Shown here piece by piece: positions 10,111-28,024 of a stretch of DNA of 64,000 nt. The stretch's first letter is position 1, and each line of letters starts with the position of its first letter. Source of the DNA: Corallococcus sp. AB018 (GTDB lineage Bacteria; Myxococcota; Myxococcia; Myxococcales; Myxococcaceae); assembly GCF_003986945.1 (NCBI RefSeq), contig NZ_RAWR01000021.1:1-64000 (forward strand). The letters run 5' to 3'. The notes beneath the pieces were generated by a model. The model made no database searches and was not told where the DNA came from. It saw only the letters and a list, made by a program, of their open reading frames with translations. Both the position numbers and the translations under genes were made by a program.

Positions 10111-10338
10111 ATGAAGGCATCGCGACTGAAGCAGACGATTCCTGGATTCGCGCTGATCATCGGCATCATGGCGGGTACGGCCCTGGCCATGGTTCCCGGC
10201 TCCACGGCGGAGACGACCGATAACCAGACGTCCGCGGTCCAGATGATCTGTTCGCGCACCTGCAAGCCGTGCTCGACCCAGATGGAGTGCGGCACGAGCG
10301 GCGGTTCCTGCGGGGTCTGGCGCTGCACCCAGCCGTAA
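10111..10338 (+). CDS. Small secreted cysteine-rich peptide (75 aa precursor; about 45-aa mature region with 6 Cys)
   Basis: GGAGGA ribosome-binding site 6 nt upstream of the ATG. Signal peptide MKASRLKQTIPGFALIIGIMAGTALAMVPGSTA. Mature part ICSRTCKPCSTQMECGTSGGSCGVWRCTQP. Followed by a strong hairpin terminator. Confidence 0.5.
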   Translation: MKASRLKQTIPGFALIIGIMAGTALAMVPGSTAETTDNQTSAVQMICSRTCKPCSTQMECGTSGGSCGVWRCTQP

Positions 10339-10359
10339 ACACCGAAGCTGGCAAAACAA

Positions 10360-10391
10360 AGAGCCTCCGAGTCCCTGGACTCGGAGGCTCT
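10360..10391. terminator. Bidirectional rho-independent terminator (13-bp perfect stem GAGCCTCCGAGTC / GACTCGGAGGCTC)
   Basis: Perfect inverted repeat with 4-nt loop. TCTTCT follows on the + strand and TTTGTTTTG on the - strand. Sits between the convergent small-peptide gene and nadC. Confidence 0.65.
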
Positions 10392-10423
10392 CTTCTACGG
10401 ATTCGTGAAGACCGCTGAACGCT

Positions 10424-11302
10424 TCAGCCCTGCGCGGAGCGGGGCTTGCGCGTGGACTTCTTCGTCGTCGCGATCTCCAGCGACAGGTCCATGGCCCGCG
10501 CAGAGTGCGTCAGCGCGCCCATCGACACGAAGTCCACGCCCAGCTTCGCCAGCCGGGGCAGCCGGTCCAACGTGACGCCGCCCGACACTTCGATGGGCAC
10601 GCGGCTCGCCGTCAGCTTCACCGCTTCGCGGATCTGCGCGTCGTCCATGTTGTCCAACATGATGACGTCCGCGCCCGCGGCGATGGCCTCCTCCAGCTGC
10701 TTGAAGTTGGTGACCTCCACTTCAATCTTCACCAGCCGGGGACCGTTCAGCTTCGCGCGGCGCACCGCTTCGGTGATGTCGCCACCTACCGCCGCGATGT
10801 GGTTGTCCTTGATGAGGATGCCGTCGAAGAGGCCGAACCGGTGGTTGGACGCACCGCCCATGCGCACCGCGTGCTTCGCGAGGCCCCGCATTCCCGGCGG
10901 CGTCTTGCGCGTGTCCAGCACCCGCAGCTTCGAGCCTCGCACGGAGGTCATCGCCTGCTGGGCCAGCGTCGCGATGCCGGCGGCGCGCTGCACCAGGTTG
11001 AGCGCCGTGCGCTCCGCGGCCAGCAGCGAACGCAGCTTGCCGTGGACGCGCGCGGCGACCACCTTCGGTTTGATCTCCTCGCCGTCGCGCTTGAGGACCT
11101 CCACCTCCACCTCCGCGTCCACCATGTGGAAGACGCGGACGAAGGCGTCCAGGCCGGCGACGATCATCTGCTCCTTCGCGACCAGCTCACCGCTGCCCTC
11201 CGCTTCGGCGGGGACCACCGCCAGCGAGGTGACGTCCCCCGCAGCACCCAGGTCCTCGTCGAGGGACAGCGCGATGAGCCGATCGAGATAATCCTGCTGC
11301 AC
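10424..11302 (-). CDS. nadC: Nicotinate-nucleotide pyrophosphorylase (quinolinate phosphoribosyltransferase)
   Basis: Full-length similarity to QPRTase (RKTPPGMRGLAKHAVRMGGASNHRFGLFDGILIKDNH, VSGGVTLD). Confidence 0.9.
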   Translation of the reverse strand: MQQDYLDRLIALSLDEDLGAAGDVTSLAVVPAEAEGSGELVAKEQMIVAGLDAFVRVFHMVDAEVEVEVLKRDGEEIKPKVVAARVHGKLRSLLAAERTALNLVQRAAGIATLAQQAMTSVRGSKLRVLDTRKTPPGMRGLAKHAVRMGGASNHRFGLFDGILIKDNHIAAVGGDITEAVRRAKLNGPRLVKIEVEVTNFKQLEEAIAAGADVIMLDNMDDAQIREAVKLTASRVPIEVSGGVTLDRLPRLAKLGVDFVSMGALTHSARAMDLSLEIATTKKSTRKPRSAQG

Positions 11303-11311
11303 TTCCGCCTC

Positions 11312-14300
11312 CTACCGGCGCGCCTTGCGAGCCGGCTTGCCCCGAGTGGTCTTCTTCGCCGCGGCCTTCTTCGCGGCGGTCTTCTTCCCCGCCGCCTTCT
11401 TCGCCGAAGCCTTCTTCGCAGGAGCCTTCTTCACCGCCGCCTTCTTCGCGGCCGTCTTCTTGCCCGCTGCCTTCTTCGAGGAAGCCTTCTTCGCGGAAGC
11501 CTTCTTCGCAGGGGCCTTCTTCGCGGCGGACTTCTTGCTCGCCGCCTTCTTCGCGGAGGCCTTCTTCACCGCCGCCTTCTTCGCGGAGGCCTTCTTCGCA
11601 GGGGCCTTCTTCACCGCCGCCTTCTTCGCGGAGGCCTTCTTCGTCGGAGCCTTCTTCACTGGCTTCGCCGAACCCTCCGGCGCCTCGCGGGCGTCGCCGC
11701 CCTCCTTGGCCCGGTCGAACTCGCGCATCGCGTCGTCCACGAGGCCCATGCTCATGTACGCGACGCCCAGGTCGTGGTGGTCCGCCGGGGACAGCCCTTC
11801 CTTGGTGCCCTCGCGCAGCTTGTTGAGGGCCTCCTCCACCACCGGATCCGCGGCCTGGGGCGCCTGCGAAGCCTCTTCGGCTTCAATCTCGCCCTTCAGC
11901 TCCTGGCCCAGGTTCACCGCATCGTCCTTCGGTGCCTGCGGCTCGGTGGCCACCTTCACATGGGCGCTCTCGGGCGCGGGGGACTCGGACGCTTCAGGGG
12001 CTTCGGACTCGGTGCTGCCCGGCAACGGCGACGGCGTCTCGGACATGGGGGGCTCCGGGGCGATGCGCTGGAGGTGATCCTGCAGCTTGACCGTGCGCTC
12101 CTGGAGCTCCGCCACCCGGGCCTTGTCCTTCTCCACCACGTCCGGCGGAGCACGGGCCACGAAGTTCGGGTTGTCCAGCTTGCGCTGCAAACCGGTGAGT
12201 TCCTGCTCGGAGCGGACGATCTCCTTCTTCAGGCGGTCGCGCTCCGCGTCCAGGTCCACCAGGCCCGCCAGGGGCACATAGATTTCCAGGTTGCCGCTCA
12301 CGAACGCCGCCGCCTGCGGAGGCTTGGCGCCCGGGGGGCCCACCACCACCTCGGACAAGCCCGCGAGCGGCATCAGGTACGCGCGCCAACGCTCCAACAG
12401 CTCGCGCGTCGTCGCGTCCGGGCTCTGCACCACCGCCTTCACCTTGGCGGACGGCGGCAGGTTGCTCTCGCCGCGCAGCGTGCGCAGGCCCTCGATGGCC
12501 GCGATGACCGGCGCCATCTCGCCTTCCGCGGCCGCGTCCACCCACGCCGTCTCCGGCGCCGGGTACGCCGCGATGCAGATGCTCTCCGTGGGCCGGGACA
12601 TCGGCAGCTTCTGCCAGATCTCCTCGGTGATGAACGGCATGAACGGGTGCATCAGCCGCAGGATGCGGTCCAGGCACGTCACCAGCACCGCGCGCGTGGT
12701 GTCCTTGGCCTCCGCGTCGTCGCCGTACAGCGAGCCCTTCGCCAGCTCGATGTACCAGTCGCAGAACTCCGCCCACAGGAACTGGTACAGCGTGGATGCC
12801 GCCTCCGCGAAGCCGAACGCCTCCAGCGACGCGCGCGTCTCCTCCGTGGCCTTCTGCAGGCGGGAGAGGATCCACCGGTCCGCCAGCGTCAGCTTGCGGC
12901 CCTCGAGCGGCGTCTTGTCCAGGCTGAAGTCGCCCATGTTCATCAGGGCGAACCGGCTGGCGTTCCACAGCTTGTTGCAGAACGCCTTGTAGCCACCCAG
13001 GCGGTCCATCGACAGCTTGATGTCACGGCCCTGCTGCGTGAGCGACGCCAGCGTGAAGCGCAGCGCGTCCGCGCCGTGCGCCGGCATGCCCTGCGGGAAG
13101 CGGTTGCGCAAGGACGGCTGCAGCGACTCCGCCTTCGCGCCGAGGATGACGTCCAGGGGATCGATGACGTTCCCCTTCGTCTTGGACATCTTCTCGCCCT
13201 TCTCGTCGCGCACCATCGCGTGCAGGTACACGGTGCGGAAGGGCACATCGTTCATGAAGTGCAGGCCCATCATCATCATCCGGGCGACCCAGAAGAAGAT
13301 GATGTCGTGGCCCGTCTCCATCACGGACGTCGGGTAGAAGGTCTGGAGGTCCGCCGTCTGCTTCGGCCAGCCCAGCGTGGAGAACGGCCACAGCGCGGAC
13401 GAGAACCAGGTGTCCAGCACGTCCGGATCCTGCGTCAGCTCCTTGCCGCCGCACTTCGGGCAGGACTCCGGCGCCGTGCGAGACACGATGACGTCCGCCG
13501 TGTCCTTGGAGCGCTCCTCCGCCGGGGTGCACGCCGCGCAGTACCACGCGGGGATCTGGTGGCCCCACCACAGCTGGCGGCTCACGCACCAGTCGTGGAT
13601 GTTGTTCATCCAGTGGAAGTACGTGTTCGTCCACGACTCGGGGACGAACTTCGTGCGGCCCTCCTCCACGGCCTGGATGGCCGGCTTCGCCAGCGGTTCG
13701 ATCTTGATGAACCACTGCGGCGACAGGCGCGGCTCCACCACCGTGGTGCAGCGCTGGCAGGTGCCCACGTTCAGCTTGTGCGGCTCCTCCTTCTCCAGCA
13801 GGCCCAGCTCCGTCAGGTCCGCCAGCACCTGCTTGCGCGCCTCCCGGCTCTCCAGGCCCGCGTACTTGCCGGTGTCCTTCGTCATCCGCGCCGCTTCGTC
13901 CAGGATGGACAGCATCGGCAGCTTGTGGCGCAGGCCCGTCTGGTAGTCGTTGAAGTCGTGCGCGGGCGTGACCTTCACCACGCCGGTGCCGAACTCCATG
14001 TTCACCAGCTCGCCGTCCGCGATGACCGGAATCTCACGGTCGGTGAGCGGCAGCGCCACGCTCTTGCCGATGAGGTCCTGGTAGCGCGGATCCTCCGGGT
14101 GCACGGCGACGGCCGTGTCGCCCAGCAGCGTCTCCGGGCGCGTCGTCGCCACGGTGAGGAAGCGCTCCGTGCCCTTCACCGGATAGCGGATGTGCCAGAG
14201 CGAGCCGTTCTTCTCCTCGTGCTCCACTTCCAGGTCGGAGAGGGCCGTGCGGCAGGACGGGCACCAGTTGATCAGCTTCTGGGCCCGGTACATCAGGCCC

Positions 14301-14806
14301 TCTTCGTACAGCCGGACGAACACCTCGCGCACCGCGGCCGAGGACTGCTCGTCCATGGTGAAGCGCTCACGGCTCCAGTCCAGGGACGCGCCCAGGTAGC
14401 GGTGCTGCTCACCGATGCGCGCGCCGAACTTGCCCTTCCACGTCCAGACGCGCTCGAGGAACGCCTCGCGGCCCAGGTCGTGGCGGCTCTTGCCCTCCGT
14501 CTTCTTCAGCTCCTTCTCCACCACCATCTGCGTGGCGATGCCCGCGTGGTCCGTACCCGGCAGCCAGAGCGCGTTGAAGCCGCTCATCCGCTTCCAGCGC
14601 GTGAGGATGTCCTGGATGGTCGCGGTGAGCGCGTGGCCGATGTGCAGGCTGCCCGTCACGTTGGGCGGCGGCAGCACGATGCTGAACGGCGGCTTGGAGG
14701 AAGGGGCTTCGGCGCGGAAGTAGTCGCGCTCCAGCCAGTGGTTGTACCACCGCGCCTCCACTTCGGAGGGCTCGTAGGCCTTGGACAGTTCAGTCGTGTC
14801 AGTCAT
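11312..14806 (-). CDS. valS: Valine--tRNA ligase with unusual C-terminal extension of about 260 aa (acidic/Ser-rich segment plus Lys/Ala-rich histone H1-like tail)
   Basis: HIGH motif ([14 protein letters not shown]), KMSKT motif (KMSKTKGN), and anticodon-binding and coiled-coil domains typical of ValRS. Tail composed of AKKA/SAKKA repeats. Confidence 0.95.
11325..11660. repeat. Imperfect tandem nucleotide repeats (GCC-TTC-TTC-GCG type) encoding the Lys/Ala-rich ValRS tail
   Basis: Visible periodic gccgccttcttcgc(g/c)ga units over about 330 bp. Confidence 0.6.
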
Positions 14807-14859
14807 TGCAAGCGGCCGGCCCCCGACGGGGCCGGCGGGGAATCAGAGGGGACTGCGAA

Positions 14860-16122
14860 TCAATGCTGGGTCTCGCGGTCCTTGATGAGCCGCTCCAGCT
14901 CTTCCCGGATGATGGTCTCCGCCAGCTGCGGAACGACCTCCCAGGCAATCTTCTCGATGACCTCGCGGGACGCCTTCGACAGCGCCTCGCGCAGCAGCGC
15001 CTCTCCGCCATCCGCGGCCGGACGGGCGCGCGCGGGCGGAGTCGCCGGCGAGGGACCGCCGATGTCCAGGGAGATCTCCTCCGCGCCGCTGGGCTCGGGC
15101 AGCGAGTCCTCGATGCGGATGCTCTCCGTGCGGGCCTGCGCGGCGGGAGGGGCGGCCGGAGCACCCAGCCCGAACGGATCCCGGGCACGGGCGGCCGGAG
15201 GCACCGCGGCGGGCGGGGGCGCGGACGGCAGCGGCGCGGCGCCCGGAGGACGCGGGAAGCCGCCCGGGATGTTCGGGGCGCCAGGGCCCGGAGGACGCGC
15301 GGCCATGCCCGGAGGCGGCGCACCCGGCGGACGCGCGCCCGGAGGCACGGCACCCGGAGGAGGACGCGCACCCGGCGGCATGGCGCCCGGAGGCGGCGCA
15401 CCCGGAGGACGCGCGCCCATGCCCGGAGGCGGCGCACCCGGCGGAGGACGTGCACCCGGCGGCATGGCGCCCGGAGGCGGCGCACCCGGAGGACGCGCGC
15501 CCGGAGGAACAGCGCCCGGCAGCGGACGCGCCGCACCCGGAGGAGGAGGCACACCGGCGCCCGGAGGACGCGCGCCCGGAGGCGGCGCACCCGGCGGAGG
15601 ACGCGCACCCGGCGGCATGGCGCCCGGAGGCGGCGCACCCGCGGGACGCGCACCCGGCGGCACGGCGGCGGCGGGCGGCGCGCTGACCGGAGCGCTCGGG
15701 GCGGAGGTCTGGGGCAGAATGCGCGTCGCGGCGGACGCGGGCATCGTGTTGGACTTCTGGCCCACCAGCGCCTTCACCTTGTCGAGGAGGATCTGGCTCT
15801 CGAAGGGCTTGGTGATGTGGTCATCCGCCCGGGCGGCCTTCGCGCGGTTCTCGTCGAACGCCTCGAAGGTGCCGGCGAGCAGCAGCACCGGGATGGCCTG
15901 CGTGGAGGGGTCGCCCTTGAGCGCCTCGCAGACCTCGTAGCCGCTCTTGCCCGGCATCATCACGTCGGCGAGCACCACGTCCGGACGCAGCTCGCGCGTG
16001 CGGGAGATGGCGTCCAGCCCGTTGTCCACCGCGGTCACCTGGAAGTCTTCCGTCGCGAAGATCATCCCGATCACCTTGCGGATGGTGAGCGAGTCGTCGG
16101 CGATCAGTAGATTCTTGGGCAT
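14860..16122 (-). CDS. romR: Response regulator with receiver domain, long Pro-rich repeat linker and Glu-rich C-terminal helix (RomR-like polarity regulator)
   Basis: REC domain (LLIADDSLTIRKVIG...DVVLADVMMPGKSGYEV...TKPF). About 12 copies of PPGARPPGAPPPGAM. C-terminal EALLREALSKASREVIEKIAWEVVPQLAETIIREELERLIKDRE. This architecture matches M. xanthus RomR. The start was chosen at the Met immediately preceding the REC domain (MPKNLLIADDS). Confidence 0.65.
   Translation of the reverse strand: MPKNLLIADDSLTIRKVIGMIFATEDFQVTAVDNGLDAISRTRELRPDVVLADVMMPGKSGYEVCEALKGDPSTQAIPVLLLAGTFEAFDENRAKAARADDHITKPFESQILLDKVKALVGQKSNTMPASAATRILPQTSAPSAPVSAPPAAAVPPGARPAGAPPPGAMPPGARPPPGAPPPGARPPGAGVPPPPGAARPLPGAVPPGARPPGAPPPGAMPPGARPPPGAPPPGMGARPPGAPPPGAMPPGARPPPGAVPPGARPPGAPPPGMAARPPGPGAPNIPGGFPRPPGAAPLPSAPPPAAVPPAARARDPFGLGAPAAPPAAQARTESIRIEDSLPEPSGAEEISLDIGGPSPATPPARARPAADGGEALLREALSKASREVIEKIAWEVVPQLAETIIREELERLIKDRETQH
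15230..15700. repeat. Tandem about 45-48-bp nucleotide repeats encoding the Pro/Gly/Ala-rich linker
   Basis: Repeated cccggaggcggcgcacccggcggaggacgcgcacccggcggcatggcg units. Confidence 0.7.
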
Positions 16123-16239
16123 CGGCTCCGGCCTCGGGGGGCGCATACCCCCCTGAATTCGTTTGAGATTTCGGGCGAGCAAGCCTGCCTGCACGCCCTG
16201 TGTCAATCGGAGAAGCTTAGGATTCGCGCGTTGGGCCGA

Positions 16240-17148
16240 TCAAGAAAACATGCGCTGCAGGTCCAGTAACATCACCGGATCCGGCAGCCCCGGCGCCCGG
16301 AACGTTCCGGGAAGCTCGGCCGGCTTGAACTTCTGCAGCACACCCAGCACCCGGGTGGCCGCCAGCCCTACGTTCCGCCCCGCCAGTTCCGTGAGGACGA
16401 ACAGCTCCTCCGCCTGGGCCGGCGCACCCAGCAGCGCTGGAATCGAACAGATGGGCCATAGCGCCTGCGCGTGGGGATAGACGCCCGCCACCGGCCCGCT
16501 CTGCACCGGGAGCACGCTGAACGCCTCGCCCCGGGGTACCACCTGGGAGACGCAACCCAGCGGGACGCCGAACAGCACCCCCTGGGACTCCAGCACCAGC
16601 GCCCGCTCCGGGGGCGCGTCCGCATAGTGCACGGGCCGGGGCTCTGGCGGGGTCGCCCGGGGGCCCGCCCGGTGCGGCAGCGCTTCCACGATGAGCTCCA
16701 GGTACAGCCGGTCCTTGTGCAGCACCGCGCCCCGGCTCAGCGGCGCCAGCGAGTCCGCCAGGCCCGGAGGCAGCAGGAAGAACGGGTCCCTCGCGACGTC
16801 CGCGACCTCCACCACGGCGCGCACCCGCACCGCGAGCGTGGGGCTGACGTCCAGGACCACCACCATGCCCGGCACTTCCTCAGGCAGGCCGCCGAGCAGC
16901 GCGGCGAGGTCCTTCACTTCCAGTACGCCGCGCAGACTCGCGCCGCGAGCGCCCGGCATCGCGACCTCGATGACGGAGGTGGCCTCCACCGCGTAGCGCG
17001 TCTCTCCGGCCTCCACCAGCAGGCAGAGCCGCCGTCCGCTTTCAAAGGGCACGGCCCGGGACCCTAGCAGCCTTCCAGCGTTGGGTGCTAAGCCCTGAAC
17101 AGTCATGGCGCGACTGCTCCTCGTCGACGACGAAAAGATCGCCCGCAA
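16240..17148 (-). CDS. CheW-like coupling protein with two CheW-like domains
   Basis: Two segments with CheW-like signatures (RRLCLLVEAGETRYAVEATSVIEV and ALVLESQGVLFGVPLGCVSQVV). The alternative start at 17106 overlaps the start codon of the divergent gene. Confidence 0.65.
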   Translation of the reverse strand: MRAIFSSSTRSSRAMTVQGLAPNAGRLLGSRAVPFESGRRLCLLVEAGETRYAVEATSVIEVAMPGARGASLRGVLEVKDLAALLGGLPEEVPGMVVVLDVSPTLAVRVRAVVEVADVARDPFFLLPPGLADSLAPLSRGAVLHKDRLYLELIVEALPHRAGPRATPPEPRPVHYADAPPERALVLESQGVLFGVPLGCVSQVVPRGEAFSVLPVQSGPVAGVYPHAQALWPICSIPALLGAPAQAEELFVLTELAGRNVGLAATRVLGVLQKFKPAELPGTFRAPGLPDPVMLLDLQRMFS

Positions 17149-19053: not shown

Positions 19054-20583
19054 ATGCTCCCGCGCATGGAGACCCCCTCGCCGCTCGCGCAGCTGCTCCA
19101 GGCCCTGGACGCGGGGGACCTGGAGAAGGCACGGGTCGCGGCCGTGGCGCTGCAACGCGCCAACGCCCACACCCATCAGGTCGCCGCGGAGGTCCTCCAT
19201 GAGCTGCGTCAGCCCCTCCTGGGCGCGAAGGCCTACGCCCAGCTGCTCGCCGAGGAAGGAGGCTCCAGCGGTCCGCTGAAGCTGCTGCTCGCGCAGGTGG
19301 AGCGGATGGAGCAGATCGTCTCCGACTTCATCCGCCTGGCCAGCGAGCGGCCGGCCCCGCAGCAGCGGCTGTCCCTGGCCGCGCCCATCTGGGCGGCGGC
19401 GAAGGTGTTCAGCGTCAACCCGGACTCGGCGCGCATCTCACTGGAGGTGGAGGCCCCCGAGGACCTCACCATCCAGGGCAACGCGCGGCTGATTGAGCAG
19501 CTCACGCTCAACCTGCTCAACAACGCCCGCGACGCCATGTCCGGCCGGGGCCGCGTGAAGGTGACGCTCACGCGCGATGGCGCCTCCGCGGCCCTCTACG
19601 TTTCCGACTGGGGACCGGGCATCCCGGACGAGCTGAAGACGCGCATCTTCGAGCCCTACGTCTCCGCCAGCAAACGCGGCACGGGCCTGGGGCTCGCCGT
19701 CTGTCGTCGCATCGCGCAGGAGCACCACGCGCAGATTGCCCTGGTGCCGCCCACGACGCTGCGCGAAGTGCCGCCCCCGGCCACCGTGTTCCGCGTGCTC
19801 TTCCCGCCCACGGACGCGCCGCGCCCGCCGCGCAAGCGCCTGCTGGTGGTGGACGACGAGGGCATCATCCGGATGGTCTTCAAGGACCTGATGGACAAGG
19901 AGTGCGAAGTCATTGAAGCGGCCACGGGCGAAGCCGCGCTCGAAATCCTCCGCTCGTCGCGCGTGGATCTCATCGTCACGGACAAGAACCTGCCCGGAAT
20001 CTCCGGCCTGGAGCTGGCCCAGCACGCGAGGAAGCTGGACCCCGCGTCGCGCGTCATCCTGATGACGGGCTACCCCTCGCTGGTGACGACGCAGCAGGCG
20101 CTGCAGCTGGGCCTGGTGGACTACCTGCTCAAGCCCTTCGACGACATCCGCCAGGTGCGCGCGCTGCTGCGGCAGGCGCTGTACACGCCGGCCGCGCCGC
20201 CTGTCCCCGCCCCCAGCGCTGGCGTGCGCCGGGTGGACGTGCTGGAGGACAACCCGGCCACCGCGCGGCTGATTTCAGAGGCGCTGACGCTGTTGGGCCT
20301 GGAGGCGCGCGTCGTCGCGGGCGCGGAGGTGGCCACCATGGAGCCGCCCATGGGCGTGGTGGTGTCTTGGGACTTCGCGCCGGCCTACGGCAAGAAGGCG
20401 CTGGAGCTGGCCCGGGCCCTGAGCCAGGGCGCGCCCTTCGTCGTCCTGGCCGAGCACCTCACCATGGACACGGCGCTGGCGTCGCTGCGCGCCGGGGCCG
20501 CCGCGTGCCTGCCCAAGCTGCTCTCCGACACCACGGCGCTCAGCCGCGAGCTGGGCCTGGCCTTCAAGAAGACCGCTTCCTGA
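19054..20583 (+). CDS. Hybrid sensor histidine kinase (HisKA + HATPase_c + C-terminal receiver)
   Basis: H-box LHELRQPLLG. N/G boxes (LNLLNNARDAM, SDWGPGIPDE, GTGLGLAV). Receiver RLLVVDDEGIIRMV...DLIVTDKNLPGISG...KPF. Confidence 0.85.
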   Translation: MLPRMETPSPLAQLLQALDAGDLEKARVAAVALQRANAHTHQVAAEVLHELRQPLLGAKAYAQLLAEEGGSSGPLKLLLAQVERMEQIVSDFIRLASERPAPQQRLSLAAPIWAAAKVFSVNPDSARISLEVEAPEDLTIQGNARLIEQLTLNLLNNARDAMSGRGRVKVTLTRDGASAALYVSDWGPGIPDELKTRIFEPYVSASKRGTGLGLAVCRRIAQEHHAQIALVPPTTLREVPPPATVFRVLFPPTDAPRPPRKRLLVVDDEGIIRMVFKDLMDKECEVIEAATGEAALEILRSSRVDLIVTDKNLPGISGLELAQHARKLDPASRVILMTGYPSLVTTQQALQLGLVDYLLKPFDDIRQVRALLRQALYTPAAPPVPAPSAGVRRVDVLEDNPATARLISEALTLLGLEARVVAGAEVATMEPPMGVVVSWDFAPAYGKKALELARALSQGAPFVVLAEHLTMDTALASLRAGAAACLPKLLSDTTALSRELGLAFKKTAS

Positions 20584-20668: not shown

Positions 20669-22360
<1,692 letters not shown>

Positions 22361-27925: not shown

Positions 27926-28024
27926 GGTAGGGCCTCCGGACCTGGTGGCCGGCCCGGTCTTCAAAACCGGTGAGGGGCTGCGAGAGCAGTCCCTGGCGAG
28001 TTCGATTCCCGTGCCCTACCGCCA
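27926..28024 (+). tRNA. selC: tRNA-Sec (anticodon UCA), bacterial 8/5-type with long variable arm
   Basis: 8-bp acceptor stem GGTAGGGC/GCCCTACC, discriminator G, encoded CCA. Anticodon stem CCGGT/ACCGG with loop CTTCAAA (U33, UCA, A37). Long extra arm GAGGGGCTGCGAGAGCAGTCCCTG. GTTCGATTCC T-loop. Folded by eye only. Confidence 0.7.

Follow-up and report, generated by a model that had tools for sequence, protein, structure and literature searches.

Introduction

The lysine-rich extensions of the yeast valyl- and glutaminyl-tRNA synthetases (ValRS and GlnRS) are cis-acting domains that bind tRNA nonspecifically, and lysine-rich extensions of synthetases have been described as absent from the bacterial relatives (PMC3306390). 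Among bacterial proteins of other kinds, the KPAA tail of Pseudomonas AlgP associates with polyphosphate granules and is needed for the spacing of the granules (PMC9239181), the PAKKA repeats of Mycobacterium smegmatis Ku contact DNA (PMC3553676), and the DNA-binding HMGA domain of Myxococcus xanthus CarD is interchangeable in function with the histone H1-like domain of its Anaeromyxobacter orthologue (PMC2919716). The subject of this work is the valS gene of Corallococcus sp. AB018, contained in a stretch of 64,000 nucleotides (contig NZ_RAWR01000021.1, positions 1 to 64,000 of the forward strand), hereafter the window, whose coordinates are used throughout. Its product continues for 249 residues past the canonical end of ValRS and finishes in a strongly basic, H1-like tail. 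Both ingredients, lysine-rich synthetase appendages and H1-like tails on bacterial proteins, are of known kinds, and the long ValRS itself is already catalogued, under the name 'valine--tRNA ligase' only. The tail had been pointed out in an earlier note, made by reading the window without database searches.

A valyl-tRNA synthetase with a three-part extension

The valS reading frame is unbroken over 11312-14806 on the minus strand and comprises 1164 codons, from an ATG start to the stop codon at 11312-11314. By curated equivalog cut-offs and domain content, the product is a genuine class Ia valyl-tRNA synthetase. It passes the NCBIfam models NF011492 (PRK14900, an equivalog; 1823.3 bits against a cut-off of 1783), NF004349 (1254.6 against 704) and TIGR00422 valS (1137.7 against 612), and its translation contains the HIGH (SLHIGHAL) and KMSKT (EKMSKTKG) motifs. 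Pfam tRNA-synt_1 covers residues 20-599 (1.2e-150), the editing-domain family is also matched, and Anticodon_1 covers residues 643-792 (5e-42). The canonical enzyme, with its catalytic and editing body, anticodon-binding domain and coiled-coil arm, spans residues 1-915 (12062..14806, minus strand). It closes with the tRNA-binding coiled coil at residues 851-915 (12062..12256, minus strand), which is matched by Pfam Val_tRNA-synt_C (1.2e-18) and predicted by AlphaFold with high confidence (predicted local distance difference test, pLDDT, 90-95). Residues 2-861 of the 862-residue Thermus thermophilus enzyme (1GAX) align end to end with residues 6-915 of the window protein, and 13 of the closest non-extended ValRS representatives, read by eye, all stop within about 5 residues of position 915. 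The extension therefore consists of residues 916-1164 (11315-12061), 249 amino acids, somewhat fewer than the approximately 260 proposed in the earlier note, which was right about its existence.

The extension has three parts: an acidic spacer, a module of four helices whose last two form a TPR-like pair, and a disordered Lys/Ala tail. The spacer, residues 916-964 (11915..12061, minus strand), is rich in Ser, Pro and Glu, as had been noted, and is predicted to be disordered (pLDDT <50); counted over residues 916-1001, its composition includes 21 Ser plus Pro and 19 Asp plus Glu, with a net charge of -14. The four-helix module follows at residues 965-1034 (11705..11914, minus strand; pLDDT of the helices 65-79). 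Its TPR-like pair, residues 1006-1034 (11705-11791, minus strand), is made of predicted helices at 1006-1018 and 1021-1034, and contains the peptide from which one such pair had originally been suggested. The pair had been regarded as a detail of the spacer; its presence stands, and its weight had been underrated, this being the most conserved part of the extension.

The tail, residues 1046-1164 (11315..11671, minus strand), is recognized by its composition and by predicted disorder (pLDDT <50), with a composition-driven match to Pfam HC2. Over the 112 residues from 1053 to 1164 it contains 42 Lys, 41 Ala and no Asp or Glu, and has a net charge of +46. An acid-free, disordered Lys/Ala tail is thus found after the coiled coil of this ValRS, in keeping with the H1-like tail proposed at the outset. 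The same holds for the estimate of about 20 repeats: the tail has 21 KK dipeptides in xxxKK pentads (approximately 11345-11659), and all 20 intervals between them are of exactly 5 residues. At the DNA level, Tandem Repeats Finder delimits an array at 11351-11659 with nested periods of 15, 30, 45 and 75 nt and 72-84% matches, that is, repeats that are genuine yet imperfect and diverged. No other Lys-rich stretch occurs in the 64-kb window in any frame.

The tail closes (11315-11356, minus strand) with a conserved string outside the repeat, present in two copies in some Corallococcus species, and the last residues of nearly all family members are ...KKARR or KR. The tail was also inspected for an AT-hook of the HMGA/CarD type, with its R-G-R-P core, and this was rejected, the sole candidate, TTRGKPARK (TRGKP), having Lys in place of the second Arg and lacking the GRP core.

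Distribution of the extension

With the profile of the helical module (alignment A2), 105 confirmed hits were obtained in a genome collection in which each species is represented once; 80 loci were kept. Almost all of these are labelled Corallococcus, Myxococcus, Pyxidicoccus, Citreicoccus, Hyalangium, Archangium or myxobacterial metagenome-assembled genomes (MAGs). One kept record is labelled 'Proteobacteria bacterium' and one Comamonas. The latter (BNCN01000007.1, under the title 'Comamonas sp. KCTC 72670') has a long ValRS of the Myxococcus type, 1363 codons from stop to stop, together with module, tail and nadC, and its label is probably wrong. The best match of the window module in the scan was in Corallococcus interemptor (97%), and over the tail and nadC the DNA shares 97.8% identity with that of C. 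coralloides KYC2213. No record of the exact protein sequence was returned by a look-up.

A complete open reading frame (ORF) could be recovered from 73 of the 80 loci, and in all 73 the module and the basic tail follow the ValRS-type coiled-coil arm in frame. These genomes were assembled independently, and complete chromosomes are among them. This bears on the question, raised beforehand as the way in which the observation might fail, of whether a sequencing or assembly error had joined valS to a separate gene downstream. Apart from that a priori concern nothing speaks for such an error, and NCBIfam holds a 1044-position model for the long ValRS. With the fusion in frame across 73 relatives, the tail is therefore not split from valS in any of them, and the chance that the architecture is a frame-fusion artefact is next to nil. 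Free-standing genes for the module were considered as well. Three short matches on longer contigs (P0016, P0287 and P0291) were checked, and all proved to be pieces of frameshifted valS in metagenome assemblies; they therefore give no support to an ancestral free gene. From this distribution in sequenced genomes, the extension is a lineage-specific appended domain of the Myxococcaceae/Archangiaceae group.

When 1.84 billion representatives were scanned in full with HMMER, thousands of ValRS emerged, and among the best 150 ValRS cluster representatives only four have at least 25 residues past the coiled coil. P0168 is a fragment of the window family. P0121, from uncultured 'Myxococcales bacterium' MAGs, is a second ValRS lineage of approximately 1080-1100 residues with an unrelated extension, consisting of a Pro/Gln-rich spacer of 'QPKSQPP' repeats, one helix and an Arg/Lys/Gly/Ala tail. 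P0182 (1581 residues, on a 40 kb ENA contig of an AT-rich organism) has 618 residues of genuine TPR repeats after the coiled coil and, as judged from this arrangement, is an independent ValRS-TPR fusion. P0220 has 80 extra residues. A further 17 long representatives were inspected and end at the coiled coil; in several of them the alignment begins some 100 or more residues into the protein, and their additional length therefore lies in N-terminal extensions. Within the best 150, a basic C-terminal tail is present in two representatives, P0168 and P0121, both myxobacterial. The basic C-terminal tail thus looks like a myxobacterial trait among ValRS. It may have been acquired or reshaped on more than one occasion, the P0121 lineage having retained or re-invented a basic tail behind a different middle part.

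Tails of a similar type occur on many other proteins, among them ObgE of Stigmatella, Archangium and Melittangium, RsfS, DksA, HU, CarD-like proteins, adenylate kinase and NYN-S1 proteins. The approximately 100 non-ValRS matches listed include no further aminoacyl-tRNA synthetase.

Two forms of the extension and the charge of the tail

The family comprises two forms. In the short, Archangium-type form the sequence after the coil, 'RIAPVEVRIAPP...', runs straight into the helical module, and in the long form (Corallococcus, Myxococcus, Pyxidicoccus, Hyalangium and Citreicoccus) the acidic spacer is inserted between them. The spacer is confined to the long-form relatives, where its sequence and length vary. 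Short-form enzymes have a total length of about 1040-1150 residues, with tails of 52-109 residues and net charges of +19 to +35; long-form enzymes reach about 1390 residues, with tails of 101-291 residues and net charges of +41 to +62, mostly +43 to +51. Measured from the REF motif, the window tail has 134 residues, against a family median of 129 and a range of 52-291. The suggestion that its length and regularity are extreme is hence not supported within the family.

Among the long forms the length of the tail varies 2.9-fold and the lysine fraction drops from 0.39 to 0.22 as the length grows, so that the charge remains nearly constant. As read from these comparisons, selection acts on the charge of the tail and not on its length. 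Corallococcus species differ in their tails by insertions and deletions in multiples of 5 residues, which are direct evidence, at the sequence level, of repeat gain and loss over evolutionary time. The array had been described as prone to expansion and contraction; this is borne out between species, by the 5-residue steps only, whereas the DNA repeats in the window are diverged (72-84% matches). The conservation of charge rather than length provides a quantitative, testable design rule for disordered polycationic tails.

In the M. xanthus group (L016, L021-L024 and L034) the spacer has short tandem repeats of its own (TEAEV/TEADIA units) and attains a length of about 118 residues and a charge of about -30, and the ValRS tails of this group reach 291 residues.

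The helical module and its relation to TPR proteins

The motif of the module is invariant or nearly so (alignment A1) among relatives whose identity across the aligned C-terminal region is no more than about 55-65%. No Pfam TPR family reaches its gathering score in the module; the nearest are TPR_2 (17.4 against 27, E=0.0047), TPR_14 (15.3 against 23.5) and TPR_1 (13 against 27.8), and the same Pfam/NCBIfam scan gave a weak SgmX/GltE match. A profile search of 5.8 billion proteins retrieved ValRS fragments, followed at E values from about 1e-6 by large myxobacterial TPR proteins, matched in their C-terminal TPR block. Compared with these SgmX-like proteins by hhalign, the module gave a probability of 98% (48 columns, 48% identity) in an alignment that takes in the preceding helix as well as the TPR; its target is the first TPR of proteins with several Pfam TPR families. 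The ValRS helix and TPR unit align with 'DFADMLRKFKQGIAENV..YDLGVAYKEMGLVDEAVAEFQKAL' of the C-terminal block.

Judged from these profile comparisons, the module consists of one TPR-type unit preceded by a helix and is related to the SgmX-like TPR blocks. It matches the NCBIfam SgmX model NF052243 at positions 875-925 (E=3.8e-7), and the large TPR proteins and the ValRS module together match that model at positions of about 875-1013, far under its cut-off. With a score of 29 against a cut-off of 1800, the ValRS module is not a member of the SgmX family. The SgmX-like proteins have tandem TPR arrays, whereas ValRS has a single unit, with two helices before it and the disordered tail directly after it, and not an array of three or more TPRs; no shared function is implied by the kinship. 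The structural model of the module is of medium confidence only (mean pLDDT 65). A Foldseek search of the module against the PDB gave no meaningful match (best E=4.7), and the AlphaFold placement of the module onto the coiled coil is uninterpretable (predicted template modelling score 0.23).

Function of the tail

The most plausible functional reading of the extension, by analogy, is a nonspecific affinity for tRNA or nucleic acid, as the earlier note had also supposed. We infer that the Lys/Ala tail would act in cis as a sequence-nonspecific polyanion binder with a preference for tRNA. Through its charge it would trap tRNA, along with other RNA or DNA, and keep tRNA near the enzyme, lowering the effective Michaelis constant for tRNA-Val, and it would also keep ValRS in regions of the cell rich in nucleic acid. 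For the acidic linker we infer a double role, giving the tail reach and partly neutralizing it when no ligand is bound. The helical module, with its TPR-like pair, would most likely serve for docking, either of a partner protein or of some other region of the enzyme itself. In this form the tail would be a device for the capture of polyanions and tRNA, a bacterial counterpart of the eukaryotic lysine-rich synthetase appendages, a proposal to which we give about an even chance. Several features are consistent with it. The tail comes right after the domain that Pfam names the tRNA binding arm; the module is nearly invariant, and the charge of the disordered, HC2-matching tail is held; a basic tail on ValRS is, among the best 150 representatives, peculiar to myxobacteria; comparable tails are found on other proteins linked to nucleic acids or the ribosome; the negative charge of the spacer and the positive charge of the tail co-vary; and the yeast ValRS and GlnRS extensions, the H1-like domain of CarD and the Ku repeats offer analogies.

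Other observations weigh against the capture of tRNA. The bacterial Lys/Ala tails cited above bind DNA or polyphosphate, not tRNA, and a charge of +46 may be more than a gain in tRNA affinity requires. The invariant TPR-like unit suggests a specific partner, which a mere tRNA glue leaves unexplained. The match to Pfam HC2 'histone H1-like' (PF07382; residues 1050-1162, 42.8 bits against a gathering score of 40) is driven by composition, the profile being of low complexity, and proves neither homology nor function, and the NCBIfam H1-like models (NF038053 and NF038052) stay far below their cut-offs, with 47.2 against 80 for hist_H1_lk_Burk and 30.7 against 135 for Hc2. The correlation between the negative charge of the spacer and the positive charge of the tail (Spearman -0.82, n=73, kinship ignored) is dominated by two clades. 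Finally, the literature search returned nothing relevant on a myxobacterial ValRS tail or on bacterial aminoacyl-tRNA synthetases with H1-like tails.

The same polycation could instead serve as a tether that localizes or stores ValRS on the DNA of the nucleoid or on granules of polyphosphate, for instance in starving, developing or sporulating cells, with the TPR-like unit recruiting a partner. The characterized bacterial H1-like tails cited here act on these ligands (PMC9239181, PMC3553676, PMC2919716), the same type of tail is present on HU, DksA, CarD-like proteins, ObgE and RsfS, which are nucleoid or ribosome-hibernation factors, and the succession of an acidic and a basic block resembles that of the HMGA-type CarD (PMC2919716). 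However, the sequence of the tail does not tell DNA or polyphosphate from RNA, the tail is joined to the one domain of ValRS that already contacts tRNA, and valS appears to be the housekeeping copy, in synteny with nadC in 80 of 80 loci. We regard a tether as a serious rival, though at a probability well short of even. The specific protein contact that the TPR-like unit implies is explained neither by a tether nor by tRNA capture. That the tail has no function at all, being a neutral low-complexity expansion produced by replication slippage in a GC-rich genome and tolerated at the C-terminus, is very improbable. The DNA is indeed a tandem array, and the length of the tail varies more than five-fold among relatives, in 5-residue steps among Corallococcus species; but none of the 73 complete ORFs has lost the tail, the net charge is constrained although the length drifts, the tail accompanies an invariant helical module and has the conserved ...KKARR ending, and DNA repeats as diverged as these (72-84%) are not the product of recent slippage.

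If the tail raises the capture of tRNA, it would be a clean case of convergent evolution, and the genetics of M. xanthus would make it a tractable system in which to address the purpose of synthetase appendages. If its role is instead to anchor ValRS on the nucleoid or on polyphosphate, or if valS also yields a free H1-like protein from the internal start, translation factors would be linked to chromatin-like organization, a linkage of interest in bacteria with development and sporulation.

A candidate internal start at Met921

Direct reading of the sequence revealed a GGAG (12053-12056) separated by 6 nt from the ATG (12044-12046) of Met921, on the minus strand. This candidate internal start (12044..12056) would yield a product of 244 residues. 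Met921 lies 6 residues past the canonical end of ValRS and is the sole Met in the disordered regions of the window protein. The corresponding motif, P-E-x-x-M, is encoded as CCGGAG-N6-ATG in 43 of 44 long-form sequences (the window and 43 relatives), the single exception having GAGGG upstream, and the two codons inside the motif and the sequence beyond the Met vary freely. The Pro codon is CCG in 43 of the 44, against 71% CCG across valS, and the Glu codon is always GAG. The geometry resembles that of a Shine-Dalgarno sequence with its start codon, as in the AGGAGG-5 nt-GTG of the adjacent nadC.

All these properties, namely the conservation of CCGGAG-N6-ATG around varying codons, the codon bias, a spacing that matches the nadC start and the solitary Met just after the canonical end, argue for two products of valS, the full-length ValRS and a free 244-residue H1/HMGA-like protein. 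Against it, the short-form, Archangium-type relatives have no Met921, CCG and GAG are the preferred codons anyway in sequences that share descent, which makes the statistics weak, and the string 'RIAPE' may be merely the conserved end of the coiled coil; moreover, no free-standing homologue of the module was found, the three short matches that were checked being pieces of frameshifted valS. On balance, the production of two proteins is unlikely, though less so than a functionless tail. A relic of gene fusion was rejected as the sole account of Met921, as invariance throughout Myxococcaceae this divergent is not what a mere relic would show; Met921 is missing from the short forms.

An internal start does not exclude the capture of tRNA by the full-length enzyme and is compatible with it. 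In its fullest version, which we likewise hold to be unlikely, the extension would amount to an H1/HMGA-like factor that is fused to ValRS and possibly also translated on its own, composed of an acidic region, a TPR unit that binds a partner and is akin to SgmX-type polarity proteins, and a polycation tail, and the GGAG-N6-ATG would give rise to a free 244-residue protein that binds the nucleoid or polyphosphate. If true, the dosage of a chromatin-like protein would be coupled to a housekeeping translation gene.

Genomic neighbourhood

The gene that follows is nadC, for quinolinate phosphoribosyltransferase (10424..11302, minus strand; Pfam QRPTase_N and QRPTase_C). As read directly from the sequence, its GTG start lies 10 nt past the valS stop codon, which is overlapped by the AGGAGG. 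It comes directly after valS in 80 of the 80 loci, a conserved context that lies outside the appendage. A scan of 10200-15200 for promoters and terminators found nothing on the valS strand; the terminator-like hits on the plus strand, inside the repeat, were discarded as by-products of the repeat sequence. The Rfam scan found no RNA family near valS, and its sole family match in the window is a selenocysteine tRNA at 27926-28020 on the plus strand (RF01852, 70.5 bits).

Upstream of valS, 14860-17148 (minus strand) and 19054-20583 (plus strand) encode a response regulator, a CheW-like protein and a hybrid histidine kinase, and a response regulator is found upstream of valS in 64 loci. A GroEL-type chaperonin is encoded at 20669-22312 (minus strand). 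On the other side of nadC, a 759-residue ORF at 7441-9720 (minus strand) has the full set of Major Vault Protein (MVP) domains (MVP_shoulder, 9e-45; Vault, Vault_2, Vault_3 and Vault_4) and, by this domain content, is a bacterial homologue of the shell protein of eukaryotic vaults. Nucleotide synteny with eight close Corallococcus genomes breaks off at 10420, where nadC ends, and a tblastn search of 85 loci (80 of them scan loci with up to 5 kb of flank) gave no MVP. The relatives examined therefore lack the MVP segment at this position.

Comparison with known systems

Lysine-rich tRNA-binding appendages have been regarded as a eukaryotic elaboration, and a bacterial group with 105 confirmed genome hits would have built one independently on ValRS. 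A bacterial synthetase that unites an acidic linker, one SgmX-like TPR unit and an H1-like tail of conserved charge appears to be undescribed in the literature searched. What was available in the catalogues is the model of the long myxobacterial ValRS, NF011492/PRK14900, whose positions 881-1030, of 1044, cover the last 262 residues of the window protein. PRK14900 only names the enzyme as ValRS and is silent on the extension. Its length fits the short, Archangium-type form, and the window protein has, in addition, the acidic spacer and a longer tail.

The appendages of the eukaryotic synthetases, such as yeast ValRS and GlnRS and the LysRS and AspRS of higher eukaryotes, are likewise terminal, lysine-rich and non-catalytic additions to a canonical enzyme. 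The extension of yeast ValRS is N-terminal, whereas the myxobacterial one is C-terminal, far more repetitive in its tail (21 exact pentads) and, unlike the eukaryotic appendages, preceded by an acidic linker and a TPR-like unit. No sequence homology between them is claimed.

With the H1-like tails of bacteria (Pfam HC2, PF07382: Chlamydia Hc2; the KPAA repeats of Pseudomonas AlgP; mycobacterial HupB/Hlp and the PAKKA repeats of Ku; the C-terminal domain of Anaeromyxobacter CarD) the ValRS tail shares its composition and its character of a disordered polycation, and those tails are also appended to unrelated folded domains. The difference lies in the host, here an aminoacyl-tRNA synthetase, and in the putative ligand, which is likely RNA, whereas the cited examples bind DNA or polyphosphate. 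A parallel in layout is the HMGA-like C-terminal domain of M. xanthus CarD, in which a highly acidic region stands beside a basic, DNA-binding one (PMC2919716), as acidic and basic regions do in the ValRS extension. CarD, however, is a transcription factor that uses AT-hooks with the RGRP core, whereas ValRS is a synthetase with one TRGKP that lacks the GRP core.

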